Below the pieces are notes generated by a model, which was not told the origin of the DNA, did no database searches, and was given only the letters and a program-made list of their open reading frames with translations. DNA of 64,000 nucleotides from an uncultured Saprospiraceae bacterium (GTDB taxonomy: Bacteria > Bacteroidota > Bacteroidia > Chitinophagales > Saprospiraceae). Numbering within the stretch: the first letter of the stretch is position 1; each line of letters starts with the position of its first letter. This document shows positions 3,155 to 20,316 of the stretch, one piece after another. The stretch lies in contig CAYYWZ010000001.1 in NCBI GenBank assembly GCA_964475415.1, positions 14,360 to 78,359 on the forward strand, read 5' to 3'. The translations under genes and the position numbers were made by a program.

Positions 3155-5047
3155 TTACGGTCTACTAATTTCGGAGCTTATGGACTTACCACCCGCAATA
3201 ATAGAAGATGCTCCATGAACAGTAATAAAAGATTTCTCAAAATCATCTTCCTCCGCCTTAAAGATATTATCAACATATTTTTGCGGATTTCTATCTATGT
3301 AAGGAAACCAGGTACTGTGTATCTGTATCATAACTTTATGACCTTTCTTGAAGGTGTGTAATATATCTTGAAGTGGAACATCTACTTCCGTAGGCTCTCC
3401 TGGAACGAATGGTTTCGGAAACTCGTAACTCTCTCTGAACCTACCTCGGAAAGTTTCATGACGCACCAGTTGCTGATAGGAACCCATTATTACATTCTTA
3501 GGATTATGTTCATACTGCGGATGATCTGGAGGATAGACATCTATAAGCTTTATGATAAAGTCTGCATCTGTCCCAGACATAGACACCACAAGCTTAGCTA
3601 ATATCTCTCCAGCAATCGTTAGATCTTCTTCTAAGATCTCTGTTTCGAAAGTAAGCACATCAGGCCGCTTAGAAGCATGGCGCTGATCATCTGTCATAAA
3701 CTTCCTAGGTGTAAATGTCAATCCTTCTGTTTCCGATCTATAAGGAACAGGCTTAGCAGGATCGCTTAGATAATCAAATTCTAAATTAATATCTGTAGGA
3801 TTGTTAACCGATAGCTGCCCTTTATTTCCAAAATATAAACTTACTGGTGGAATATCTTCAGGTGGCCACTGTGCGAAAGTTCTCCACTCTTTCTTTCCCG
3901 TGTCAAACATATAAGCTTCAGGCAATTTAGAATCTGGTCCTCCTTTAAGATAATGATTGAAAAAATTAAATTCTATTTCTTGCTGATAAAAATGGGAAAT
4001 ACTATCTCCGTAATAGATATGATTAACAATTTGCTTTTCATAAGGCCTGGCCCAATCTCCATGTGTCCATGGTCCCATTACAATTGTATTTTTTGCTTTG
4101 GGATTTTCTTTCTCTATTGTTTTGTAAATATTAAGTGGGCCGTACAGATCTTCCGCATCATACCAGCCTCCTACAGTCATAACAGCGTGGTCTATGTTTT
4201 TTAGATGAGGAAGGATACTTCTAGAGCTCCAGAATTCATCATAATTAGGATGCTCTACAATCTGTTCCCAGAAAAAATTATCATGATGATATTCTTCTGT
4301 AATATTTTTTAGTGGCCCTTTGTTTAGATGCCACTCATACCCATCAGCAACTTTCTCATCAAAAAATCTACCTATCTCCTTACCGTACCAAGGCTGATCT
4401 GTCAAGCTATCTTTCTGATATCCAAAAACAGCAAAGGCTGCAGTATAACTTTGTAAGTAAGCGCCGTGATGGTGGAAATCATCAAAGAAAAAATCTGCAA
4501 TAGGTGCTTGCGGCGAAGATGCCTTAAGTGCGGGATGAGCATCTGGCAGTGCCGCCGTAGTATAGAATCCAGGATAAGAGACACCATACATCCCTACCCG
4601 ACCATTATTATTTTTTATATTGTCTAGAAGCCATTCTATTGTATCGTAGGTATCAGAACTTTCATCTATATCCTTTTTGTTTTTGACATTGTTTCCAGCA
4701 ATGTTAGGTGTCATATTGTTAAATGTACCACCTGACATATATCTTCCTCTCACATCTTGATAGACTAATATGTACCCATCTTCTATTAAGTATCCAGAAG
4801 GATAAAACCCTAAATTATAATCTCCTTTTACTGAAGCATTATAACAGGTTCTGTTCATCAGAAAAGGATATTTCTCCGATTGATCCTTAGGACTGTAGAC
4901 TATGGTAAATAATTCTACCCCATCTCGCATCGGAATAAAATGCTCTGACTTGTCGTAATGCTGAGCTACATAGGTGGAATCTTTTAGCTGAGCGTGGATA
5001 ATTCCAGGTAGAAGCAGCATAGCAAATAAGTATAGAATATTTTTCAT
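3155..5047 (-). CDS. CocE/NonD family hydrolase (S15 X-Pro dipeptidyl-peptidase-like)
   Basis: 630 aa with a signal peptide and nucleophile motif GMYGVSYPGFY (GxSYxG). Length and C-terminal beta-sandwich region are typical of the CocE/NonD family. Confidence 0.75.
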   Translation of the reverse strand: MKNILYLFAMLLLPGIIHAQLKDSTYVAQHYDKSEHFIPMRDGVELFTIVYSPKDQSEKYPFLMNRTCYNASVKGDYNLGFYPSGYLIEDGYILVYQDVRGRYMSGGTFNNMTPNIAGNNVKNKKDIDESSDTYDTIEWLLDNIKNNNGRVGMYGVSYPGFYTTAALPDAHPALKASSPQAPIADFFFDDFHHHGAYLQSYTAAFAVFGYQKDSLTDQPWYGKEIGRFFDEKVADGYEWHLNKGPLKNITEEYHHDNFFWEQIVEHPNYDEFWSSRSILPHLKNIDHAVMTVGGWYDAEDLYGPLNIYKTIEKENPKAKNTIVMGPWTHGDWARPYEKQIVNHIYYGDSISHFYQQEIEFNFFNHYLKGGPDSKLPEAYMFDTGKKEWRTFAQWPPEDIPPVSLYFGNKGQLSVNNPTDINLEFDYLSDPAKPVPYRSETEGLTFTPRKFMTDDQRHASKRPDVLTFETEILEEDLTIAGEILAKLVVSMSGTDADFIIKLIDVYPPDHPQYEHNPKNVIMGSYQQLVRHETFRGRFRESYEFPKPFVPGEPTEVDVPLQDILHTFKKGHKVMIQIHSTWFPYIDRNPQKYVDNIFKAEEDDFEKSFITVHGASSIIAGGKSISSEISRP

Positions 5048-9451: not shown

Positions 9452-11008
9452 CTACCCCGCCCAACCTTCTCTATCTAGACTCCTATATTGTATTGCTTCT
9501 GCTAGATGTTCTATTTTGATATCTTCACTTCCAGCAAGATCAGCAGCCGTTCGAGCCACTTTCAGAATTCTATCATAGGCTCGGGCAGACAATTGTAGTT
9601 TCTCCATGGCCTTCTTAAGCAGTATCTGACCTGCCTGATTTATTTGACATATTTGTCTTACCATATTACTAGGCATCTGTGCATTGCAATAGATTTCTGG
9701 ATTAGTCTCATATCTCTTATTCTGGATTTCCCTTGCTCTAGTTACTCTTATAGAAATATCTTCGCTGCTTATTTCGGCTGGTTTAAAATCTGACAACTCA
9801 TCATAAGAAACCGGCGTAACTTCCACGTGTAAATCTATTCTATCTAATAAAGGACCTGATATCTTACTAAGATATTTTTTTACAATACCTGGACCACAGA
9901 CACAGTCTTTTTCAGGGTGATTGTAATATCCACATGGACAGGGATTCATCGAAGCAATCAACATAAAGCTAGATGGATAATCTACCGTCACTCTCGCTCT
10001 AGAGATCGTTACCTTTCTTTGTTCCATCGGCTGACGAAGAACCTCTAAGACAGAGCGCTTAAATTCTGGAAGTTCATCAAGAAACAATACGCCATTATGT
10101 GCTAACGAAATTTCTCCAGGATTGGGATTAGATCCTCCACCTACTAATGCCACATCACTAATCGTATGGTGCGGTGATCTGAAAGGTCTAGTTGTTACTA
10201 ATGAAGCATTGGTGTCTAGTATACCAGCTACACTATGTATTTTTGTCGTTTCTAATGCCTCATACAGTGATAAGGGTGGCAAGATCGTGGGCAGTCGCCT
10301 AGCTAACATAGTCTTCCCTGCTCCTGGAGGTCCGATTAAAATCACATTGTGTCCACCAGCAGCAGAAAGCTCTAGTGCTCGCTTTATATTCTCCTGACCT
10401 TTGACATCAGAGAAATCTACACTATAACTATTCTTAGCATCCATGAATGCTTCTCGCGTATCGTAAACCAGTGGCTTAATCGTAGGATTACCACAGACAA
10501 TATCTATGGCCTCATTCAGATTTTTAACTCCAAAAACTTCTAGGTCATTTACAATAGCTGCTTCTTTAGCGTTCTGTTTCGGAAGAATGATGCCCTTATA
10601 TTTTTCTTTTCTTGCTTGTATTGCAATCGGTAGTGCACCCTTGATAGGTCTCAAACTTCCATCGAGAGATAACTCCCCCATAATAATATATTGATCTAGT
10701 TGTTCAGCTTTGATCTGCTTCGTTGAGGCTAAGATTCCTAAGGCGATCGGTAGATCATAGGAAGAACCTTCCTTCTTGATATCTGCTGGAGCCATATTGA
10801 CAACCAGCTTAATCCTATACATCTTATGGCCTATGTTCTTAACGGCAGCTTCTATTCTTTGGAAGCCTTCCTTAACAGCATTATCCGGTAATCCTACTAA
10901 GTGATAAAACTGTTTTCCTGCAGCTACGTTTCCGCCTGCATTTACTTCTATTGTAATGGTCTGTGCCTCGACACCTGATACGGCACTGGCATATGTTTTT
11001 ACTAACAT
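9452..11008 (-). CDS. comM: YifB/ComM family Mg-chelatase-like AAA+ ATPase
   Basis: 518 aa with an N-terminal Lon-protease-like domain. Walker A GPPGAGKTMLA, GVLFLDELPEF and the Cys cluster NPCPCGY are typical of ComM/YifB. Confidence 0.9.
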   Translation of the reverse strand: MLVKTYASAVSGVEAQTITIEVNAGGNVAAGKQFYHLVGLPDNAVKEGFQRIEAAVKNIGHKMYRIKLVVNMAPADIKKEGSSYDLPIALGILASTKQIKAEQLDQYIIMGELSLDGSLRPIKGALPIAIQARKEKYKGIILPKQNAKEAAIVNDLEVFGVKNLNEAIDIVCGNPTIKPLVYDTREAFMDAKNSYSVDFSDVKGQENIKRALELSAAGGHNVILIGPPGAGKTMLARRLPTILPPLSLYEALETTKIHSVAGILDTNASLVTTRPFRSPHHTISDVALVGGGSNPNPGEISLAHNGVLFLDELPEFKRSVLEVLRQPMEQRKVTISRARVTVDYPSSFMLIASMNPCPCGYYNHPEKDCVCGPGIVKKYLSKISGPLLDRIDLHVEVTPVSYDELSDFKPAEISSEDISIRVTRAREIQNKRYETNPEIYCNAQMPSNMVRQICQINQAGQILLKKAMEKLQLSARAYDRILKVARTAADLAGSEDIKIEHLAEAIQYRSLDREGWAG

Positions 11009-11105
11009 CTATGATTTTTGTTTGCTAATGAAAATAATTTATGTCTGTACTCTAAATGAAAAGTGAAAATAGAAAATATATTTGCCGCATACAACATTTT
11101 ATATT

Positions 11106-11135
11106 TATGTCAATGGTGATACAATCATTGACATA
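11106..11135. promoter_or_regulatory. Perfect inverted repeat (10-bp arms, 10-bp spacer), candidate operator between comM and the sulfite-reduction operon
   Basis: tatgtcaatg-gtgatacaat-cattgacata; the arms are exact reverse complements. Confidence 0.4.
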
Positions 11136-11252
11136 AGAAAAATAAAATCCAATACAGCTTTGTAAAGAAGAAGACCTTTGGAGTTTTTTCAAAATAAATA
11201 AGAGATGATATTTGACTATTTCATTAAATAAAACTAATATTGATTATTAATT

Positions 11253-11318
11253 ATGAAAAAAAGAAATAGAAATATGATCTATATATGTTGTTGCAAAGCA
11301 AAAAGCCTGCTTCAGTAA
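11253..11318 (+). promoter_or_regulatory. Candidate leader peptide 1 (21 aa) with three consecutive Cys codons
   Basis: ATG..TAA mini-ORF MKKRNRNMIYICCCKAKSLLQ; TGT TGT TGC at 11286..11294. It is below the ORF-track size cut-off. Confidence 0.5.
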
Positions 11319-11350
11319 CGCCATACATATTTATCAAAATTTAAATTAGG

Positions 11351-11386
11351 GTCTTTCTGAAGAAATTTAGAAAGGCTTTTTTATTT
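11351..11386 (+). terminator. Terminator-like hairpin plus T-run after leader ORF 1
   Basis: gtctttct / agaaaggc gives an 8-bp stem (one G-U) with a 10-nt loop, followed by ttttttattt. Confidence 0.45.
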
Positions 11387-11407
11387 GTAAGTTGAAATGA
11401 AAGTAAA

Positions 11408-11485
11408 ATGCCAAAAATGAGTCACCATAATAAAATAGACAAGATGTGTAAGTGCTGCTGCTATAAAATTCCTATTGATTCTTGA
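11408..11485 (+). promoter_or_regulatory. Candidate leader peptide 2 (25 aa) with four Cys in five codons
   Basis: Mini-ORF MPKMSHHNKIDKMCKCCCYKIPIDS; TGT AAG TGC TGC TGC at 11447..11461. Confidence 0.5.
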
Positions 11486-11510
11486 TAGTCATATACATCT
11501 ATACAGATAT

Positions 11511-11550
11511 AAAGCCTTGCAAGAATTAGTTTTGCAAGGCTTTTTTTATT
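11511..11550 (+). terminator. Strong intrinsic-terminator hairpin 20 nt upstream of the sir start codon (attenuator candidate)
   Basis: aaagccttgcaa-gaattagtt-ttgcaaggcttt is a perfect 12-bp stem followed by tttttatt. It sits inside the spurious N-terminal extension of track ORF 11475..13712. Confidence 0.7.
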
Positions 11551-11570
11551 CATCATTACAAAAAATATAC

Positions 11571-13712
11571 ATGACAAATTCACCAGTACAAGATATATCG
11601 CCAGAAGACCAAAAAGATATTACAGAACTAAAAAGTAAGATTGATAGATTCCAAAAGGGAAAGATAGACGAAGAAAAATTTAAGCTCTACAGGCTAACTA
11701 GAGGCGTGTACGGACAACGTCAGCTAGGGGTACAAATGTTCCGAATAAAAATACCTTATGGCCGTATCAGTCCCCATCAGATTAGAGTGATAGCTGATCT
11801 TTCTAAACAATATGCTTCTAATAATTTACACCTAACAACCAGACAAGATATACAACTACATTATGTAAAACTTACAGATTCTCCTGCTGTCTGGGAAGGT
11901 CTTACCAGTCACGGACTTACAGGAAGGGAGGCCTGTGGTAATACAGTAAGAAATTTAACTACAAGTCCTACAGCAGGTATAGATCCTGACGAGCCATTCG
12001 ACGTAACACCTTATGCACATGCAGTAGCATACTACTTCTTAAGAAATCCTATATGTCAAGAGATGGGAAGAAAAATAAAACCAGCCTTTTCCTCAAGCGA
12101 TCATGATCGAGCCTTTACTTATTTCTCCGATTTCGGATTTATACCTAGAATAAAAAAAGAAGGCCATAAAACAATTCGTGGATTTAAAGTAGTGCTTGGA
12201 GGTGGTCTAGGTGCACAAGCTATAGAAGCACAAACTGCATATCAATTTTTAGAAGCAGATAAAATCATTCCATTTATGGAAGCGGGGCTAAGAGTTTTTG
12301 ACAGATATGGAGAACGTAAAAAAAGACAGAAAGCAAGAATGAAATTTCTGATTAAATCCATAGGGGTCGATGGGTTTCTAAATCTAGTAGAGAAAGAGAA
12401 AAAGGCCTTAGAAAACGAAACAATAAAGATAGATCCTCAAGATTATACCTATGGTACTATACCTAATTATTTCGAAGCCGAAATAAAAGAGCCAATACAT
12501 AATGCTAAGTACGATCTCTGGAAAAAAACAAATACTTTTTTACAAAAAGACAACACCTATTATGGTGTATATCTGAGAATACAACTAGGAGATATATCCT
12601 CAGAAAAGGCAAGAACATTAGCAGATATTATAGAACCCTACGCCTCTGATGACATAAGAATTACAATTAACCAAGGTCTCTTATTAAGACATGTTCATGA
12701 GAATCATCTTGCTGAACTATTTTCAAAATTGGATACTGCAGGATTTGCAGAACCAGGGTTCGACTCTATAGCTGATGTGACGGCCTGTCCAGGAACAGAT
12801 ACCTGTAACCTCGCAGTTACTAATAGTACAGGACTTACCAGGGCGATAGAAAATATGATAAGAGATGAGTATGAACATCTCTTAGAAGAAGATCATATAA
12901 AAATAAAAATCAGTGGCTGTATGAACGCTTGTGGTCAGCACATGGCTGCCAACATAGGTTTTCATGGAAGTTCCATTAAGAAAAACGGACTCATTATTCC
13001 TGCTATGCAAATTGTACTTGCTGGCGGAATTGATAGAACAGGAAAGGGATGGATTGCAGAGAAAATCATAAAAGTTCCCACAAAAAAAATACTTGAAGTT
13101 ATCAGAGTTCTGCTAGAAGATTTCGAGAAAGAAGGAGATGATGATGAATACTTTAACTACTACTATGCTAGACAAGGCAAGAAATACTTTTATTCGCTTC
13201 TTAAACACCTGTCCAACATAGAGGAGCTAGAAGGAACAGAGTTTTTTGACTGGGAACAGGATCATCAATATCAACAATCTATAGGCGTGGGGGAATGTGC
13301 AGGTGTTATGCTTGACGTTGTCGGCACCATTCTTCAAGAGGCAGAAGATAGAATACAACTAGCTCATCAAGGAAGCAAAGAAGAACTATTTGTAGATGCT
13401 AATTACCATGCTTACTCGGCAATCATTATTGCAGCTAAAGGACTCTTACTATCAGAAGATATTAGTTGTAACACACAGATTGGAATTATAAATGACTTCG
13501 AAAAACATTTTATAGAAAGTCAAAAGTTTGCTTATGAGGAATCGTTTACTGAGAGTGTACTTTCTCTAAATAAAAACGAACCTAAAAAATCTTTTTCTCA
13601 AGCTTACATCTCTCAAGCAACAGATTTTGTACAGCAAGCAATACTATATAGAAACAGGCAACTAGAAAATACCTTAGAAAAAAAGGTAATCAGTAACCAC
13701 TATAAAGCGTAA
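11571..13712 (+). CDS. sir: Ferredoxin-type assimilatory sulfite (nitrite/sulfite) reductase hemoprotein with C-terminal helical extension
   Basis: Nitrite/sulfite reductase motifs: RQDIQLH, the siroheme/4Fe-4S Cys motifs TACPGTDTCNLA and SGCMNACGQH. Start moved to ATG 11571 (MTNSPVQ), downstream of the terminator hairpin. There is an extra tail of about 140-150 aa after the reductase core. Confidence 0.85.
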   Translation: MTNSPVQDISPEDQKDITELKSKIDRFQKGKIDEEKFKLYRLTRGVYGQRQLGVQMFRIKIPYGRISPHQIRVIADLSKQYASNNLHLTTRQDIQLHYVKLTDSPAVWEGLTSHGLTGREACGNTVRNLTTSPTAGIDPDEPFDVTPYAHAVAYYFLRNPICQEMGRKIKPAFSSSDHDRAFTYFSDFGFIPRIKKEGHKTIRGFKVVLGGGLGAQAIEAQTAYQFLEADKIIPFMEAGLRVFDRYGERKKRQKARMKFLIKSIGVDGFLNLVEKEKKALENETIKIDPQDYTYGTIPNYFEAEIKEPIHNAKYDLWKKTNTFLQKDNTYYGVYLRIQLGDISSEKARTLADIIEPYASDDIRITINQGLLLRHVHENHLAELFSKLDTAGFAEPGFDSIADVTACPGTDTCNLAVTNSTGLTRAIENMIRDEYEHLLEEDHIKIKISGCMNACGQHMAANIGFHGSSIKKNGLIIPAMQIVLAGGIDRTGKGWIAEKIIKVPTKKILEVIRVLLEDFEKEGDDDEYFNYYYARQGKKYFYSLLKHLSNIEELEGTEFFDWEQDHQYQQSIGVGECAGVMLDVVGTILQEAEDRIQLAHQGSKEELFVDANYHAYSAIIIAAKGLLLSEDISCNTQIGIINDFEKHFIESQKFAYEESFTESVLSLNKNEPKKSFSQAYISQATDFVQQAILYRNRQLENTLEKKVISNHYKA

Positions 13713-13715
13713 AAA

Positions 13716-14486
13716 ATGAATAATACAAAAAACAAAGCTCGTGTAAGTCTAGTAGGTGCTGGACCAGGAGATAAGGATCTTATAACAATAGCAGGATTAA
13801 GGGCCATACAATCAGCAGATGTTATTCTTTATGATGCACTTGTAAATGTGGCTTTACTGCAAGAAGCAACTCCAGATGCCAAAAAAATATTCGTTGGAAA
13901 ACGAGCAGGTACTAGATATAATACTCAAGATGAAATCAATCTCCTCATCGTACAATCGGCCTTAAATTATGGTCATGCTGTAAGACTAAAAGGAGGTGAC
14001 CCTTTTATTTTCGGTAGAGGACATGAAGAGCTAGAATATATTAAAGCCTTTAACATTTCTACACAAATAATCCCTGGTATCTCTAGCTCAATCTCTATTC
14101 CCTTACTGCAAGAAGTACCTCTAACACGCAGAGATATAAGTCAAAGCTTTTGGGTACTTACAGGTACAACTAAAGAAGAAAAATTATCCAAAGACATAGA
14201 GATAGCTGCCAAAACAGATGCCACCCTTGTAATTCTCATGGGTATAAAAAAACTAAAGCTGATACAAAAGATACTACTAGAAGAAGGTAAAGCAGATCTT
14301 CCTATAATGATTGTCCAAAGTGGCTCTACTTCTGCTGAAAAGAAAATTGTTACAACGATAAAGGAAGTCGTCTATCAAGCAGAAAAACACGAAATAGGAA
14401 CTCCAGGAATCATCGTCATAGGAGAAGTTGTAAGACTACATCCAGAATTTGTTCAACAAAAAATTGCAAGCACATGGAATCTGTAG
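13716..14486 (+). CDS. cobA: Uroporphyrinogen-III C-methyltransferase
   Basis: VSLVGAGPGDKDLITIAGLRAIQSADVILYDALV and RLKGGDPFIFGRGHEE are typical of CobA and the CysG C-domain. Confidence 0.9.
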   Translation: MNNTKNKARVSLVGAGPGDKDLITIAGLRAIQSADVILYDALVNVALLQEATPDAKKIFVGKRAGTRYNTQDEINLLIVQSALNYGHAVRLKGGDPFIFGRGHEELEYIKAFNISTQIIPGISSSISIPLLQEVPLTRRDISQSFWVLTGTTKEEKLSKDIEIAAKTDATLVILMGIKKLKLIQKILLEEGKADLPIMIVQSGSTSAEKKIVTTIKEVVYQAEKHEIGTPGIIVIGEVVRLHPEFVQQKIASTWNL

Positions 14487-15076
14487 ATAACAACCCACTT
14501 TACCCTGTGTTTTTTAAGCTAAACAAACTTAGAATTTTAGTCATAGGTGCTGGAACTGTTGCAGAGGAAAAATTACACTTTATACTGAAAAGTAGTCCTA
14601 ATGCTAACATTACTATTGTAGCTCCATGGGCTAGGCAAAACACTTTTGATATAATTGAAAAATATCCAGATAATATTAATTGGATAAAAAAAGAATTTGA
14701 TGAGACAGATATAAGTTCTAACGATCTTATAATAGCTGCTACTAATTTTCATGAAATAAACAAGCAGGTACATAAGGCTGCAAAATCACAGGGAAAAATT
14801 ATCAATGTTGCTGATACACCAGAGTTGTGCGATTTTTACATGGGATCTATAGTTACAAAAGGTGCTTTAAAAATTGCTGTATCTACCAATGGTCAATCAC
14901 CCACACTAGCTAAAAGATTTAGACAATTACTAGAAGATGTCTTACCTGATGATACTTCAAGCCTTATTTCTAATCTTAAAAAAATCAGAGATAATCTGAA
15001 AGGAGATTTTGAATATAAGGTAGGACATCTAAATGATCTCACACAGTCTATAGTAGATAATATCAACAAAAATTAA
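14474..15076 (+). CDS. Precorrin-2 dehydrogenase / sirohydrochlorin ferrochelatase (siroheme synthase N-domain type)
   Basis: Rossmann motif ILVIGAGTVAEEK; 200 aa; overlaps cobA by 13 nt; the context fits siroheme synthesis. Confidence 0.75.
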   Translation: MESVDNNPLYPVFFKLNKLRILVIGAGTVAEEKLHFILKSSPNANITIVAPWARQNTFDIIEKYPDNINWIKKEFDETDISSNDLIIAATNFHEINKQVHKAAKSQGKIINVADTPELCDFYMGSIVTKGALKIAVSTNGQSPTLAKRFRQLLEDVLPDDTSSLISNLKKIRDNLKGDFEYKVGHLNDLTQSIVDNINKN

Positions 15077-15080
15077 AAAC

Positions 15081-15788
15081 ATGCATTCAGCTAAAAAACA
15101 AATAGTAGAAAAAGAAAATATAGAGGAATTGAACCATTTGTTTTCTCCTTTGAGCTATTTAGAGCGCATAGAAAAATTATATGATTTCTATACTGAAAAG
15201 GAAATACTGTTCACTTCATCATTCGGAATCAAATCAATTTTTCTTATTCATGCTATGCAAAAAATTCGCCCTAGTCAGCACATTCATTTTATTGATACCA
15301 CCTATCATTTTGACGAAACGATAATTTACAAAGAACACTTACAGAAAAAATATAGCCTGAAAATCATTGACGTTCTTCCTGATGCTATCCAAAATGAACT
15401 TACAAAAACTGAGGCCTGGTGGAATGATCATCCTAAAATGTGTTGCTCTATTAACAAAGTAGTACCTCTACAAAGCTATACTGCTAAGCATAAAATATGG
15501 ATTAGTGGTCTGAGAAAGTACCAGACTAAACATAGGTCTTCGCTTTCTATATTTGAGAAAAAAGGTGATATTATCAAATTTTACCCTCTTTTAGATGTTT
15601 CTGAGCTAGAATTTCAGAGAATAAAATCAAAAAATAATCTTGAAAATCACCCCTTAGAGGAACAAGGCTACGGTTCTGTAGGTTGTAAACACTGTACAGT
15701 AAAAGGAAAAGGTAGAGATGGAAGATGGAAAGATAAAAACAGAACAGAATGTGGCTTACATCTCAATTACTTTTATAACAAAAAATAA
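15081..15788 (+). CDS. cysH: Adenylyl-/phosphoadenylyl-sulfate reductase (CysH family, Fe-S cluster type)
   Basis: PAPS-reductase fold (SSFGIKSIFLIH, DTTYHFDET). The Cys pair KMCCSINKV and the C-terminal GCKHCT pattern are typical of the 4Fe-4S APS-reductase subgroup. Confidence 0.85.
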   Translation: MHSAKKQIVEKENIEELNHLFSPLSYLERIEKLYDFYTEKEILFTSSFGIKSIFLIHAMQKIRPSQHIHFIDTTYHFDETIIYKEHLQKKYSLKIIDVLPDAIQNELTKTEAWWNDHPKMCCSINKVVPLQSYTAKHKIWISGLRKYQTKHRSSLSIFEKKGDIIKFYPLLDVSELEFQRIKSKNNLENHPLEEQGYGSVGCKHCTVKGKGRDGRWKDKNRTECGLHLNYFYNKK

Positions 15789-15861
15789 ATAATTTTACAG
15801 TAGATTAGCTTAGGTTAGAAATTCCCTGCTAGTTTGTTTTACAAAGACAATACAATATTAA

Positions 15862-16869
15862 ATGAAAGAAACAGATATAATAATTATAGGAGCAGGACCG
15901 TGTGGTTTGTTTACTGTTTTCGAAGCTGGATTACTTAAGCTTCGATGTCATCTAGTAGATTCCTTACCTATTCCAGGTGGGCAGCTTAGTGAAATATATC
16001 CCAAGAAGCCTATCTATGATATACCTGGATATCCTAGTATACTTGCAGGTGATCTGGTAGATAATCTTATAAAACAGATAGAACCATTTAAACCAGAATT
16101 CACCTTAGGAGAGAGAGCTGAAAAAATAGAAAAAGAAGCATCTGGAAAATATGTACTTACAACCAGTCGAGGAACTCAGATAAAGGCTCCCGTTATTTGT
16201 ATTGCTGGAGGTCTAGGTTGTTTCGAACCTAGGAAACCACCAATAGCTAATATCTCAGATTTCGAAGATAAGGGCATAGATTATATCATAAAGGATCCAG
16301 AAAAATTCAGAGATAAGACATTAGTCATAGCAGGTGGTGGAGATTCTGCACTTGACTGGACGATAGAGTTAGCTAATATTGCTAAAGAAATAACGCTGGT
16401 ACATAGAAGAACATCCTTCCGAGGAGCTCTAGACAGTGTCGATAAGGTGATGGAATTAGCTAAGCAAAATAAGATCAACCTCATCACTGAAGCACAAGTA
16501 ACAGGTATCAATGGTAATGGTATCCTCAAAGAAGTGATTATCAAGACGAAACAAAATGGTGATATTACTAAAGCTGTAGATAACTTTATACCACTTTTTG
16601 GACTATCTCCTAGTCTAGGACCAATTGCTGAGTGGGGACTAAATATTACTAAGAATGCTATAGAGGTAGACACACTAGATTACAGCACCAACGTAGAAGG
16701 TATATACGCAATAGGAGATATCAATACTTATACAGGAAAACTAAAACTCATTCTTTGCGGTTTTCACGAAGGAACGATGATGGTGCAATCAGCGTTTAAG
16801 TATATATATCCCGATCAGAAACTAAGTTTCAAGTATACGACTGTAACAGGAATATCGGGAATAGAATAA
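15862..16869 (+). CDS. Thioredoxin-reductase-like ferredoxin-NADP+ reductase (YumC type)
   Basis: FAD motif IIIGAGPCGLF and NADPH motif VIAGGGDSALDW; GGQL..IYP...IYD signature; 335 aa. Confidence 0.8.
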   Translation: MKETDIIIIGAGPCGLFTVFEAGLLKLRCHLVDSLPIPGGQLSEIYPKKPIYDIPGYPSILAGDLVDNLIKQIEPFKPEFTLGERAEKIEKEASGKYVLTTSRGTQIKAPVICIAGGLGCFEPRKPPIANISDFEDKGIDYIIKDPEKFRDKTLVIAGGGDSALDWTIELANIAKEITLVHRRTSFRGALDSVDKVMELAKQNKINLITEAQVTGINGNGILKEVIIKTKQNGDITKAVDNFIPLFGLSPSLGPIAEWGLNITKNAIEVDTLDYSTNVEGIYAIGDINTYTGKLKLILCGFHEGTMMVQSAFKYIYPDQKLSFKYTTVTGISGIE

Positions 16870-16879
16870 TAGGTAGAAA

Positions 16880-17206
16880 GTGGAAGAAAACGTAATCAGC
16901 ATAACAGTAGTAGATAGGGAAGAAAAAGAACATATCTTAGAAGGACCTACAGATATGAGTCTAAACCTTATGGAACTATGCAAGGCAGCTGAACTAGAAG
17001 TAGAAGGCACTTGCGGAGGAATGGCGCTATGTGCATCATGTCATTGTTATGTCATGTCAGAACATGAACTTAGCAAAGCATCAGACGACGAGGAAGACAT
17101 GCTAGATCAGGCATTTTTTGTAGAAGATAATAGCAGACTCGCATGTCAAATAAAACTAGAAAATAATCTAAATGGGCTCGTTGTAAAGCTTGCACCCGTA
17201 TCTTGA
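16880..17206 (+). CDS. 2Fe-2S ferredoxin, adrenodoxin/putidaredoxin type
   Basis: Cys ligand pattern CGGMALCASCHCY...RLACQI; 108 aa; GTG start as in the track. Confidence 0.8.
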   Translation: MEENVISITVVDREEKEHILEGPTDMSLNLMELCKAAELEVEGTCGGMALCASCHCYVMSEHELSKASDDEEDMLDQAFFVEDNSRLACQIKLENNLNGLVVKLAPVS

Positions 17207-17214
17207 TAAAAAAA

Positions 17215-17236
17215 GGAGCTCCTTACAGAGAGCTCC
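17215..17236. terminator. Bidirectional hairpin between convergent fdx and the 17266..17553 gene
   Basis: ggagctc-cttacaga-gagctcc, flanked by an A-run upstream. Confidence 0.55.
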
Positions 17237-17265
17237 TACAATGAAAATAAAACTATACTAAATTA

Positions 17266-17553
17266 TTATTTTGCCATTGCTTTCTTAATGAGTCCTATAA
17301 CAGCCATAACAACTCCTCCTCCTACTCCACCTCCTGCGACAGTTCCTAGAATACTGCCTACGTCCATACTGCCACTTGCAGCAGCTGCACCTAGACTCGG
17401 AGCAACCATTCCCAATATCTGGCCACCTATACCACCACCGGCTATTCCGGCAACAGAATTCCAAAGTGTCCCTAACGAAGAATTGGGCATCATTTTACCC
17501 GCAATATTTCCGCCTAAGGCACCACTTAGCAATGAGATTATTAAACTTACCAT
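17266..17553 (-). CDS. GlsB/YeaQ/YmgE family (transglycosylase-associated) stress membrane protein
   Basis: 95 aa, Gly-rich transmembrane repeats (GALGGNIAG, GIAGGGIGGQILG). Confidence 0.7.
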   Translation of the reverse strand: MVSLIISLLSGALGGNIAGKMMPNSSLGTLWNSVAGIAGGGIGGQILGMVAPSLGAAAASGSMDVGSILGTVAGGGVGGGVVMAVIGLIKKAMAK

Positions 17554-17710
17554 ATCTTTAGTTTTGTTTTGATGATTAATAGTAATTCATAATAATAATA
17601 CTTTAATTAATTAAGAATAGAAAATAATATTATAAAAATATCTAATAAATAAAATTTAATGTTGCTTACAAAGCTCTTATAAAAGTAAGTATCACAATAA
17701 AAAATTAACT

Positions 17711-18109
17711 ATGAAAATTCAACTTAAAAACTCAGATTCCTTAGAACATTTTGTCGCAAGCAATGAAGATGGTAAAGAAATCCACCTTAGTGCAGACGGT
17801 TCTGCAGTAGGTCCTATGCAATCTGTTCTAATGGCTATCGCCGGCTGCAGTACAATTGACATCGTAATGATTCTAAAAAAAATGAAACAAGATCTACAGA
17901 ATATAGAAGTAGATGTTACAGCAGAAAGACGAGAAGAAATTCCTAGAACATTTACAAAGATTAATTTACATTACACCCTTTATGGAGAACTAAAAGAAAA
18001 AAAAGTGCAACAAGCCATCAATTCGTCTCTTGAAAAATATTGCTCTGTTTCTAAAATGATAGAGAAAAGTGCAGAAATAAGTAGCACATATGAAATAAAA
18101 ATAAAGTGA
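17711..18109 (+). CDS. OsmC family protein
   Basis: 132 aa; LMAIAGCSTIDIV and LEKYCSVSKMI match the two conserved Cys regions of OsmC/Ohr-like proteins. Confidence 0.75.
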   Translation: MKIQLKNSDSLEHFVASNEDGKEIHLSADGSAVGPMQSVLMAIAGCSTIDIVMILKKMKQDLQNIEVDVTAERREEIPRTFTKINLHYTLYGELKEKKVQQAINSSLEKYCSVSKMIEKSAEISSTYEIKIK

Positions 18110-18142
18110 AACTTGCCAGATAATTAGTGCAAAATTGTTGTT

Positions 18143-19306
18143 ATGAAATTTGAAACGAAAGCCATAAGAATTCAAAATCCTAAGTCTGATCACAGAGAGC
18201 ACAGCTCAGCGATCTTTCCGACATCATCTTTTCTTTTTAATAATGCGGAGCAGATGCAGGCGGTATTCGGAGGAACAGAAGCTGGTAATATATATAGTAG
18301 GTTTACAAATCCCTCTGTTTCAGAATTCGAAGAAAAGATAGCAGCCTTAGAAGGTGTAGAAAAAGCTATGGCGACTGCTTCAGGAATGGCAGCAGTCTTT
18401 GCTAGTTTCCTCGCATTCCTTAAATCTGGAGATCACCTCATAGCTACAAGAGCCATCTTCGGATCTACCTATCAGGTATTATCACAGACCTTAGCAGAAT
18501 ATGGAATAGAAGTTAGTTTTGTCGATGGGACCAAGCCAGAAGAATGGCCATCAGCAATGAAGAAAAATACTAAAATGTTCTATCTAGAAACACCATCTAA
18601 CCCGGGTCTAGAAATTGTAGACCTATCAGTTGCATCAGAATTTTGTAAGGCTAACAAAATATTACTGAGTGTAGATAATTGTTTTGCAACACCTTATTTA
18701 CAACAACCTGCAAAGTTCGGAGCAGACCTTGTCATTCATTCTGCAACCAAGTTTATAGATGGTCAAGGTAGGGTACTAGGAGGGGCTGTTGCTGGCAGTA
18801 AAGAAATCATAGAAAAAATCTATATGTTTATCAGAAGGACTGGAGCATCACTATCTCCATTCAACGCATGGGTATTGTCAAAAAGTCTAGAAACCCTTGC
18901 CGTAAGAATGGATAGACATTGCGACAATGCTTATAAATTAGCACAGTGGTTACTAGAGAACCCAAAGGCCCAAAACGTCAAGTATCCCTTTTTACAAAAT
19001 CATCCTCAATATAAAATAGCTAAGCAGCAGCTAAAGCTTGGAGGTGGCATCGTAACCTTTCAGATAGAAGGTGGAAATACTGCTGGAACAAAATTTCTTA
19101 ACGCATTACAAATGATATCTTTGACAGCTAATCTTGGTGATGCAAAAACAATAGCGTCTCATCCGGCTTCTACAACACATCTAAGGGTGCCAGAAGCCGA
19201 TAGATTGAAAGTAGGTATCACAGATGGACTAGTTAGAATCTCCGTCGGACTTGAACACATCGATGATATCATAGAAGATATAAGACAAGCACTTAATACT
19301 TTGTAA
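18143..19306 (+). CDS. O-acetyl/O-succinyl-homoserine sulfhydrylase (Cys/Met-metabolism PLP enzyme)
   Basis: YSRFTNPS, the PLP-lysine region HSATKFIDGQG, and RISVGLEHIDDIIEDI. Directly followed by metX. Confidence 0.85.
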   Translation: MKFETKAIRIQNPKSDHREHSSAIFPTSSFLFNNAEQMQAVFGGTEAGNIYSRFTNPSVSEFEEKIAALEGVEKAMATASGMAAVFASFLAFLKSGDHLIATRAIFGSTYQVLSQTLAEYGIEVSFVDGTKPEEWPSAMKKNTKMFYLETPSNPGLEIVDLSVASEFCKANKILLSVDNCFATPYLQQPAKFGADLVIHSATKFIDGQGRVLGGAVAGSKEIIEKIYMFIRRTGASLSPFNAWVLSKSLETLAVRMDRHCDNAYKLAQWLLENPKAQNVKYPFLQNHPQYKIAKQQLKLGGGIVTFQIEGGNTAGTKFLNALQMISLTANLGDAKTIASHPASTTHLRVPEADRLKVGITDGLVRISVGLEHIDDIIEDIRQALNTL

Positions 19307-20316
19307 TGAACCTAGAAAAAAAAATACTAGAAGAAAAATTCCCTTTAGAATCTGGAGGAACATTATCTCGCTTAGAGCTATTATACAAAACGTATGGCCA
19401 GCTCAATGAGCAAAAAAATAATGTGATCTGGGTGGTACACGCACTGACTGCTAACGCTGAGGTCGATCAGTGGTGGCCAGGATTATTCGGTGCTGGTAAA
19501 ATATTAGATCCAGAAAAATACCTTATTATTTGTTCTAATAATCTAGGGTCGCCATATGGCTCTAGTTGTGCAAAAAACATAGATCCCAAAACAAACCAAC
19601 GTTATGGTCTAGACTTCCCAGCAATAAGTTTAAGAGATACAGCAAATGCACATTTATTGCTTGCCAAAAAACTCGGAATAGAAAGTATACATCTTCTAAT
19701 TGGAGGTTCATGTGGAGGAAACATTGCACTAGAGATGGCTTATACGCTTGAACATAAACTCAGAAATCTCGTATTACTTTGCAGTGCAGCGAAAGAGAGT
19801 CCTTGGAATATAGCTATTCATGAAGCTCAACGCCTTGCACTTATAGCAGACACTAGCTTCGGAAACAATGATGACTATGCAGGAAAAGCCGGCCTCAAAG
19901 CAGCAAGAGGTATGGCACTGACCTATTACAGAACCTTTGATTCTATGGTCAAGTCTCAGCAAGAAGAAGATTCAAATAAACTTTCGGACTATAAGGCAGC
20001 TAGCTACATCCGCTATCAAGGCGAAAAACTAAAAAACAGATTTGATGCGCATAGCTACTATCATCTCTTGAATGTTCTAGATACACACCATATAGGAAGA
20101 CTAAGAAAAAGTACAGAAAATGCGCTCTCACAAATAAAAGCTAAGACGCTTTGCATAGGCATTTCTTCTGACCTACTCATTCCACCTTCAGAGCAAGAAT
20201 TTCTAGCCAAGCATATTCCTGAGGCTAAGTTAGAAATTATAGATAGCTACTATGGGCATGATGGATTTCTACTAGAATACGAAAAAATAACGTCAAGTAT
20301 ATTAGAATGGATATAA
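19306..20316 (+). CDS. metX: Homoserine O-acetyltransferase
   Basis: Alpha/beta-hydrolase with LIGGSCGGNIALEMA and C-terminal YGHDGFLLE. Its start overlaps the stop of the upstream sulfhydrylase. Confidence 0.85.
   Translation: MNLEKKILEEKFPLESGGTLSRLELLYKTYGQLNEQKNNVIWVVHALTANAEVDQWWPGLFGAGKILDPEKYLIICSNNLGSPYGSSCAKNIDPKTNQRYGLDFPAISLRDTANAHLLLAKKLGIESIHLLIGGSCGGNIALEMAYTLEHKLRNLVLLCSAAKESPWNIAIHEAQRLALIADTSFGNNDDYAGKAGLKAARGMALTYYRTFDSMVKSQQEEDSNKLSDYKAASYIRYQGEKLKNRFDAHSYYHLLNVLDTHHIGRLRKSTENALSQIKAKTLCIGISSDLLIPPSEQEFLAKHIPEAKLEIIDSYYGHDGFLLEYEKITSSILEWI

Follow-up and report, generated by a model that had tools for sequence, protein, structure and literature searches.

The 64,000-nucleotide stretch of contig CAYYWZ010000001.1 (assembly GCA_964475415.1, positions 14,360 to 78,359 of the forward strand), which derives from an uncultured Saprospiraceae bacterium and is hereafter called the window, carries a six-gene operon for sulfite reduction headed by the sulfite reductase gene sir. 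Between this gene and its divergent neighbor lies a pair of small open reading frames (ORFs) with clustered cysteine (Cys) codons, each followed by an intrinsic terminator, and from the sequence we consider it highly probable that this leader, 11247..11570, constitutes two ribosome-mediated transcription attenuators in series, which would read the charging of Cys-tRNA. The two units consist of the following elements, the ORFs being taken from the sequence and the ORF list:

11253..11318, + strand: mini-ORF 1 (leader peptide 1), 21 codons, encoding MKKRNRNMIYICCCKAKSLLQ
11348..11386, + strand: intrinsic terminator 1, stem 11348..11379 followed by TTTATTTG; 14 pairs including G-U pairs; -14.0 kcal/mol
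11408..11485, + strand: mini-ORF 2 (leader peptide 2), 25 codons, encoding MPKMSHHNKIDKMCKCCCYKIPIDS
11511..11550, + strand: intrinsic terminator 2, stem 11511..11543 with a T-run to 11550; 12 perfect pairs within 14; -18.1 kcal/mol

The Cys run of mini-ORF 1 (CCC) is encoded by TGT TGT TGC at 11286..11294, and that of mini-ORF 2 (CKCCC) by TGT AAG TGC TGC TGC at 11447..11461, with the Cys codons themselves at 11447..11449 and 11453..11461. In both mini-ORFs exactly seven sense codons separate the last Cys codon from the stop codon, which occupies 11316..11318 in the first and 11483..11485 in the second. The original prediction, made by a model from the letters and the ORF list, had given the coordinates of both mini-ORFs and of their Cys codons exactly to the base. 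It had likewise placed a hairpin with a T-run behind each of them, and both are present, although the first is longer than the 8 bp then assigned to it. A terminator scan of 10800..11800 recovered exactly two terminator-like sites against 0.4 expected from shuffled sequences. The T-run of terminator 2 ends 20 nt, and its stem 27 nt, before the sir ATG at 11571, which is therefore not covered by the hairpin. No Pfam or NCBIfam family matches the leader peptides, and the whole window yielded neither an Rfam match at gathering thresholds nor a tRNA gene; a scan of the leader against Rfam at permissive E-values also returned no family, the best sub-threshold hit being trpB with 26 bits against the 59 required. 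A 7-codon ORF in another frame (11397..11420; ATG AAA GTA AAA TGC CAA AAA TGA) overlaps the start of mini-ORF 2, and its translation could hamper initiation at 11408; aligning the leaders of the two closest relatives, L081 and L082, with that of the window reveals no equivalent of it in either.

The composition of the window provides the background against which these Cys runs have to be seen. Its G+C content is 35%, and Cys makes up 1.05% of the residues encoded by its 47 large ORFs, none of which contains a CCC tripeptide, bearing out the earlier statement that Cys is rare elsewhere in the window. Runs of three TGY codons (Y being T or C) are not rare by themselves, with 5 observed on the two strands of the window against 2.8 expected, and the remaining three (55121 on the + strand, 43830 and 26444 on the - strand) are surrounded by ordinary sequence far away from the leader, with reading frames and context judged by eye only. 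What is exceptional is their spacing: in 300 Markov simulations, a + strand with two such runs at a distance of 9-200 nt never arose.

To assess the conservation of the leader, we assembled two independent sets of loci by means of the Sir protein. The first came from a scan of one genome per species (80 loci among the matches listed), and the second from metagenome contigs (80 more loci among the matches listed, of which 74 were usable). The relatives recovered belong to the Saprospiraceae, Cytophagales, Chitinophagales and allies; the best match in the genome set is an uncultured Saprospiraceae metagenome-assembled genome with 65% Sir identity, and the closest relatives overall, L081 and L082 of the metagenome set, share 78-79% Sir identity with the window. 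Looking up the exact sequence of the window's own Sir protein yielded no record. More than half of the 80 genome loci have short ORFs with poly-Cys runs in the 700 nt upstream of sir, often two per locus, as do 31 of the 74 usable metagenome loci, and the runs in relatives comprise 4-11 consecutive Cys, often 5-11. Among the genome loci, a CCC tripeptide is encoded by 55 of the 245 coding-strand short ORFs whose end falls in the 500 nt before sir, as opposed to 6 of 8343 elsewhere, which amounts to 22% against 0.07%, or a 300-fold enrichment. Upstream sequence was long enough at 147 loci, which divide into 31 with two poly-Cys ORFs, 38 with a single one and 78 without any. Almost all loci whose Sir is more than about 56% identical to that of the window have two such ORFs, and the tandem state must therefore be old in the lineage of the window. 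L081 and L082 hold clearly orthologous tandem ORFs, that of mini-ORF 1 encoding MKKINKNMMCMCCCKVKILLR in L081 and MMKKINKNMMCICCCKVETLLR in L082, and that of mini-ORF 2 encoding MKNMISRYKITTSRAILYMCCCCKIPIDS in both. The comparison of relatives that had been proposed as a check thus came out positive with respect to conserved Cys-run mini-ORFs and terminators upstream of sir; however, it had been framed for the Flavobacteriia, and the relatives recovered do not belong to that group, which these scans could not assess.

The manner in which the Cys runs are embedded is equally constrained. Of 122 runs of at least three TGY codons upstream of sir, 115 are read as Cys within an ATG-to-stop ORF (11-63 codons, with a limit of 70 or fewer); the opposite strand has only 1 run, and the codons TGT and TGC are used in mixture. 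The encoded peptides vary in both length (11-63 amino acids) and sequence, the Cys run being the only element conserved throughout the family. As judged from these sequences, such framing of the run coupled with free variation of the rest of the peptide is the signature of a regulatory leader peptide, and not of a functional micropeptide or an RNA-only motif. The seven runs outside ATG-initiated short ORFs, found in L011 (upstream of the sir at 3977), L076, L084, L123, L129 and L135, may use non-ATG starts or belong to decayed units. The tail of leader peptide 2, KIPIDS (11462..11485), is identical in the window, L081 (1893..1913) and L082 through four synonymous third-position changes, and the sir-proximal ORFs of the more distant L012, L016, L087 and L093 end in KIPL. 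The tail might have a role as a peptide, for example in slowing termination; given that the ATTCC encoding its I-P is the antiterminator strand (see below) in several relatives, the constraint may instead be on the RNA.

The terminators are conserved along with the ORFs. A hairpin of -10 kcal/mol or stronger followed by a T-run is present within 120 nt after 85 poly-Cys ORFs, in general 20-60 nt downstream and usually 20-45 nt past the stop codon. Across the loci, the median distance is 25 nt from the end of terminator 1 to the second ORF and 32 nt from the end of the last terminator to the sir ATG. These short gaps leave no room for separate promoters, and hence sir would be reached only through read-through of both units. 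In an alignment of the first unit from 8 relatives, 98% of the cells in terminator 1 are paired and 3 of its pairs show compensatory changes; on four of five measures none of 500 shuffles reached the observed value, and on the fifth only one did. Terminator 1 shows covariation and is also the only helix in the RNAalifold consensus of unit 1 (8 sequences), while terminator 2 is kept in L081 and L082 with changes in both of its arms. As a separate matter, comparison of the window stems (11348..11379 with 11511..11543) and of the units of L001, L018, L012 and L016 indicates that the terminators within one locus are often alike. L001 has GCCTTTCTGGA in each of its two units, and L018 likewise has CCCTTCTTC in each; the likeness suggests duplication of units or their concerted evolution.

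The genes that would depend on this leader were identified through Pfam matches, and their products agree with the earlier view that the operon yields sulfide for cysteine synthesis:

11571..17206, + strand: operon of six genes, the presumed target of regulation
11571..13712, + strand: sir, sulfite reductase
13716..14486, + strand: uroporphyrinogen methylase (cobA type)
14474..15076, + strand: siroheme synthase-like nicotinamide adenine dinucleotide (NAD)-binding protein
15081..15788, + strand: 3'-phosphoadenosine 5'-phosphosulfate (PAPS) reductase (cysH type)
15862..16869, + strand: pyridine-nucleotide oxidoreductase (flavoprotein reductase)
16880..17206, + strand: 2Fe-2S ferredoxin
11212..11242, + strand: putative Bacteroidota sigma-A promoter, -33 element TTG at 11212..11214, 20-nt spacer, -7 box TAATATTG at 11235..11242

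Homologues align with Sir from residue 1 onwards, in agreement with a start of sir at 11571. The gene upstream of the leader (9452..11008) is on the opposite strand and points away, which makes 11009..11570 a divergent promoter and leader region. In the 8-sequence alignment, TTG and TA..TTG are the only conserved islands upstream of mini-ORF 1, and the sigma-A -7 consensus of Bacteroidota, TAnnTTTG, spans positions -12 to -5 (PMC9723704). The islands fit the -33/-7 consensus of the phylum, and on this basis we predict a transcription start at about 11247 and a 5' untranslated region (UTR) of about 6 nt. The end of the -7 box is 10 nt from the ATG of mini-ORF 1, and given this proximity the leader ORF is predicted to be nearly leaderless or short-leadered.

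The above features together comprise a start-to-stop short ORF in the leader, several clustered codons for Cys as the cognate amino acid, and a terminator ahead of sir without a separate promoter. We propose that transcription probably starts about 6 nt ahead of mini-ORF 1 and that, under ample cysteine, a ribosome would pass the Cys codons and reach the stop codon seven codons further on. There it would cover a segment able to pair with the 5' arm of the terminator, so that the terminator would form and RNA polymerase would halt at about 11386, with any escaping polymerases facing the same test at about 11550. When charged Cys-tRNA is scarce, the ribosome would stall on the Cys codons; the segment around the stop codon, lying just outside its footprint, would stay free and pair with the 5' arm of the terminator, and the polymerase would read on. 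Since both units have to be passed for the genes of sulfite reductase, siroheme synthesis, cysH and ferredoxin to be transcribed, read-through would be the product of two, an arrangement expected to lower basal expression and steepen the response. The ORFs, Cys runs and terminators, along with their conserved order and an excess of complementarity, are shown by the sequences, whereas the start of transcription, the stalling, a kinetic competition and any gain from a second unit are inferred. A cysteine-sensing logic fits an operon that makes sulfide for cysteine synthesis, and the conservation of poly-Cys ORFs with terminators upstream of sir, often in tandem, lends strong support to the original idea of leader-peptide attenuation applied to cysteine in duplicate.

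Such a mechanism calls for an antiterminator, and the original prediction had found no convincing alternative pairing. Complementarity to the 5' arms and constrained folds now provide candidates in both units, though these are weak in the window:

11310..11323, + strand: candidate antiterminator 5' strand of unit 1, CTTCAGTAACGCC; straddles the stop codon; its complement is 11350..11362, part of the 5' arm of terminator 1
11476..11488, + strand: candidate antiterminator 5' strand of unit 2, TGATTCTTG..AG; overlaps the stop codon; pairs with 11520..11528 (through 11476..11484) and with 11516..11517
11284..11325, + strand: P1, predicted hairpin of unit 1, in which the Cys codons (UGUUGC, AAGCA) pair with the stop region (UGCUU, GUAACG); present in the minimum-energy fold

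From the last Cys codon to the start of either strand the distance is 18-20 nt. The predicted duplex of unit 1 has -8.0 kcal/mol (p=0.053 in dinucleotide shuffles; rank 0.04 against the arms of other units) and that of unit 2, whose partner 11520..11528 is the top of the 5' arm of terminator 2 plus its loop, has -6.3 kcal/mol (p=0.007; rank 0.09). We then folded the transcript cut before the 3' arm of the terminator while moving a ribosome footprint along it. With the footprint on any of the Cys codons the antiterminator is the minimum-energy helix, whereas with the footprint on the stop codon it cannot form. With no ribosome present the antiterminator strand is held in a local hairpin, which in unit 1 pairs it with the Cys codons; P1 would thereby hide the strand of unit 1 as long as no ribosome is stalled. 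Of the cells of P1 in the 8 relatives, 79% are paired, as against 30-61% in slid controls, and the changes in 2 of its pairs are compensatory, as in AAGCA:TGCTT to AAGTA:TACTT, giving it modest support. The core of the unit-1 antiterminator is paired in 83% of the cells against 29-60% in slid controls, with single changes that are compatible with G-U pairing.

The family as a whole provides a broader test of this complementarity. The segment following the Cys codons surpasses its own shuffled versions in complementarity to the 5' arm of its terminator, at p<0.05 in 16 of 46 and 14 of 39 units, with nominal Fisher p values of 5e-15 and 6e-16, respectively. In the MAFFT alignment of unit 2 the ATTC motif is out of register in several rows, and instead of counting pairs in it we used an alignment-free cross-permutation test, in which each segment is ranked on its own arm versus the arms of other units. 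The mean rank of the own arm was 0.17, with 43 of 85 units in the best 10% (nominal Wilcoxon p of 1e-14). The antiterminator strand starts at a median of 17 nt past the last Cys codon. In 25 of 28 well-supported units, part of this strand falls under the footprint that a ribosome has at the stop codon. Constrained folding of 83 units gave a mean of 9.0 sequestered arm nucleotides when the ribosome sat at the last Cys codon, compared to 4.65 when it sat at the stop codon (nominal p=1.5e-11). The pairing of the window's unit 2 is ATTCTTG:CAAGAAT, and ATTCTTG:CAAGAA recurs in L098, while other loci have different yet matching pairings, such as GATTCCTT:AAGGAATC in L085, AATTCCT:AGGAATT in L019, CTTGATAG:CTATCAAG in L006 and GAAGAAGGG:CCCTTCTTC in L018. 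Antiterminator complementarity, as predicted from these sequences, is thus statistically supported across the family, and weak in the AT-rich window.

Several observations count against attenuation by this route. The antiterminators of the window are short and A-U rich, and their -8.0 and -6.3 kcal/mol have to be set against -14.0 and -18.1 kcal/mol for the terminators. In unit 2 the terminator is the equilibrium structure in every state of the ribosome, which means that any switch there must be kinetic. The count of sequestered arm nucleotides, which is informative over the family, fails to tell a stalled ribosome from one at the stop codon in either unit of the window, and the unit-2 pairing shows mismatches in L081 and L082. 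Among the 8 relatives, neither the P1 hairpin nor the unit-1 antiterminator shows covariation beyond the shuffled controls, the latter being a case of conserved complementarity. The units are phylogenetically related, by which the nominal p values given above are inflated. Finally, the Cys runs of the window, with 3 and 3+1 Cys codons, are the weakest in the family, and about half of the Sir loci (78 of 147) have no such leader.

These weaknesses bear most directly on an alternative in which the poly-Cys ORFs do sense cysteine but with a different output, such that a stalled ribosome blocks the loading of Rho, protects the mRNA or alters the translation of sir, with the hairpins acting as constitutive partial terminators. 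The thermodynamic inferiority of the window's antiterminators to the terminators would be accommodated by it, and translation is the target in the only experimentally tested case of Cys-sensing short ORFs (bioRxiv 10.1101/834739). Nevertheless, it accounts neither for strong intrinsic terminators at a stereotyped distance behind 85 units nor for the way in which the post-Cys segment tracks the sequence of the arm of its own terminator, and the 27 nt between the stem of terminator 2 and the sir ATG leave that start codon uncovered; we therefore regard it as unlikely. A second alternative, that an RNA switch binding a protein or ligand governs the terminators and the short ORFs are incidental, appears very improbable. 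Nothing speaks for it positively, beyond the fact that most loci without poly-Cys ORFs must be regulated otherwise, whereas the absence of an Rfam match, the lack of any conserved structure besides the terminator and the nearly invariable in-frame placement of the TGY runs in ATG-to-stop ORFs, which an RNA-only motif would not need, all argue against it.

We attach just as little credence to the proposal that the mini-ORFs encode functional Cys-rich micropeptides, for instance metal- or sulfur-binding ones, which are co-expressed with sir and have terminators of their own. Their freedom in length and sequence apart from the Cys run, the absence of a Pfam or NCBIfam match and the lack of room for a promoter of sir after the last terminator are all difficult to reconcile with such a function. 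The retention of the KIPIDS tail between the window and L081/L082 through four synonymous changes, along with the related KIPL tails of L012, L016, L087 and L093, would be expected of a functional peptide, but the identity of the ATTCC for I-P with the antiterminator strand in several relatives explains it at the RNA level. Chance assembly of a pair of unrelated short ORFs and a pair of hairpins in intergenic DNA rich in A+T, which could appeal only to the ordinary frequency of single (TGY)3 runs in the window, is refuted by the simulations, the 300-fold enrichment upstream of sir over the 80 genome loci, the in-frame placement of the runs and the orthologous tandem units of the closest relatives, and the earlier claim that two CCC runs within 200 nt are unlikely to be coincidental therefore stands.

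Transcription attenuation by two Cys-sensing units can next be placed among the known systems. The classical trp, his, leu, thr, ilv and pheA attenuators of E. coli and Salmonella likewise have a short ORF with codons for the end product, a terminator before the first structural gene and a segment near the stop codon that pairs upstream or with the 5' arm of the terminator, the position of the ribosome picking the fold. Unlike them, the leader described here would sense cysteine, has two full units in series and a predicted 5' UTR of about 6 nt, and shows no sequence similarity to Rfam leader families below E=7. Its host also differs from those of the classical attenuators, in that Bacteroidota initiate translation without Shine-Dalgarno pairing (PMC9723704). 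In the same phylum, leader-peptide attenuation of amino-acid operons has been noted for Flavobacterium psychrophilum, with cysteine not being mentioned (PMC9723704).

The closest precedent in terms of the signal is found in mycobacteria. Poly-Cys short ORFs without terminators had been predicted earlier in Actinobacteria (PMC1262725), and Canestrari et al. 2020 showed experimentally that poly-Cys leaderless short ORFs of Mycobacterium smegmatis are translational attenuators forming a 'Cys ribulon', stating that attenuation for cysteine mediated by upstream ORFs (uORFs) was previously undescribed (bioRxiv 10.1101/834739). As in the present case, these poly-Cys ORFs lie at or near the mRNA 5' end of cysteine-related operons, with stalling at Cys codons as the signal, and several operons may share the device in both. 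However, the mycobacterial elements have no terminator and unmask the Shine-Dalgarno sequence of the next gene, whereas here each ORF has an intrinsic terminator, the phylum is different and there is no homology; the predicted pairings of the window's post-Cys segments are with the terminator arm and not with the start region of sir. In the mycobacterial elements transcription starts at the start codon of the ORF; mini-ORF 1, with a start predicted about 6 nt before the ATG at 11253, would be short-leadered and recalls them in this respect. A terminator-bearing element, the uORFC-8-2 motif upstream of cysS in Rhodobacterales, has been predicted to be a ribosome-mediated attenuator (PMC8632094). 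In this motif, too, Cys codons stand in tandem in a first stem, and the terminator stem that comes next has a U-run; it differs in having only two Cys codons and a single unit, in serving a tRNA synthetase gene, in belonging to the Alphaproteobacteria and in being known from prediction only.

With respect to the tandem arrangement, the leader of Salmonella mgtCBR has tandem attenuators that answer different signals (PMC3641672). There, too, two short-ORF units in series both have to be passed, but in the present leader both would read a single signal, the Cys codons. Tandem riboswitches for the same ligand and the repeated T-boxes of B. subtilis thrZ bear a closer likeness to such same-signal units.

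A literature search, which left most subscription journals outside its coverage so that absence is no proof, found no report of Cys leaders or attenuators, whether from Bacteroidota or for sir operons. The supposition that none had been characterised for sulfate assimilation in Bacteroidota accordingly holds within that search, but the accompanying one, that Cys-sensing leader peptides are reported rarely if at all, has to be narrowed in view of the precedents in mycobacteria, Actinobacteria and Rhodobacterales. What would be new here is a terminator-based, tandem Cys attenuator in Bacteroidota on assimilatory sulfite reduction, the Cys-sensing short ORFs themselves being known. Cysteine has been a long-standing gap among the amino acids under leader-peptide attenuation, and the first experimental case, that of 2020 in mycobacteria, is translational and lacks a terminator. 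If our reading is true, there is a conserved terminator-based counterpart that is directly testable in cultured strains, and a simple account of how sulfate assimilation is controlled in a large and ecologically important phylum with poorly understood expression signals, unusual promoters and no Shine-Dalgarno pairing. Cultured strains that carry the element include Flexithrix dorotheae DSM 6795 (L021), Marinoscillum furvescens DSM 4134 (L033), Adhaeribacter rhizoryzae DK36 (L080) and Pontibacter chitinilyticus KCTC 52914 (L068). The conserved tandem would also be a natural system for learning what two identical ribosome-sensing stages achieve, be it lower leak, a steeper response or both. In practical terms, the fitting annotation for such short ORFs is that of leader peptides instead of hypothetical genes or empty intergenic DNA, and the terminators could serve as cysteine-responsive parts in Bacteroidota genetics.

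The device may extend beyond sir. Three of the 6 CCC-containing ORFs outside the sir-upstream zone are further poly-Cys leaders located 1.5-2 kb upstream of sir:

L026, 1913..2038: poly-Cys short ORF
L047, 1855..1974: poly-Cys short ORF
L067, 2334..2462: poly-Cys short ORF

These precede a gene for a 4Fe-4S ferredoxin and/or a gene for a pyridoxal phosphate (PLP) enzyme of Cys/Met metabolism, which suggests, at the level of gene order, a multi-operon cysteine regulon run by one device. We lean, with some reserve, towards the general view that many Bacteroidota (Saprospiraceae, Cytophagales and Chitinophagales) use near-leaderless poly-Cys ORFs with terminators to run an undescribed cysteine regulon over sulfite reduction and, in some lineages, over the ferredoxin and Cys/Met-PLP operon. 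This would be the first classical terminator-based cysteine attenuator, and the lineage of the window would have kept two same-signal units in series, as a two-stage ultrasensitive gate, since before its split from relatives with about 56% Sir identity.

Downstream of the operon, in 17207..20316, the ferredoxin gene is followed by a gap of about 500 nt with two overlapping ORFs (17266..17553 on the - strand and 17288..17572 on the + strand). Beyond this gap lies a sulfur-amino-acid cluster, with neither a Cys-codon run nor an Rfam riboswitch in front of it, which consists of an OsmC-like gene, a gene for a Cys/Met-PLP enzyme and an alpha/beta hydrolase gene that is possibly metX-like.

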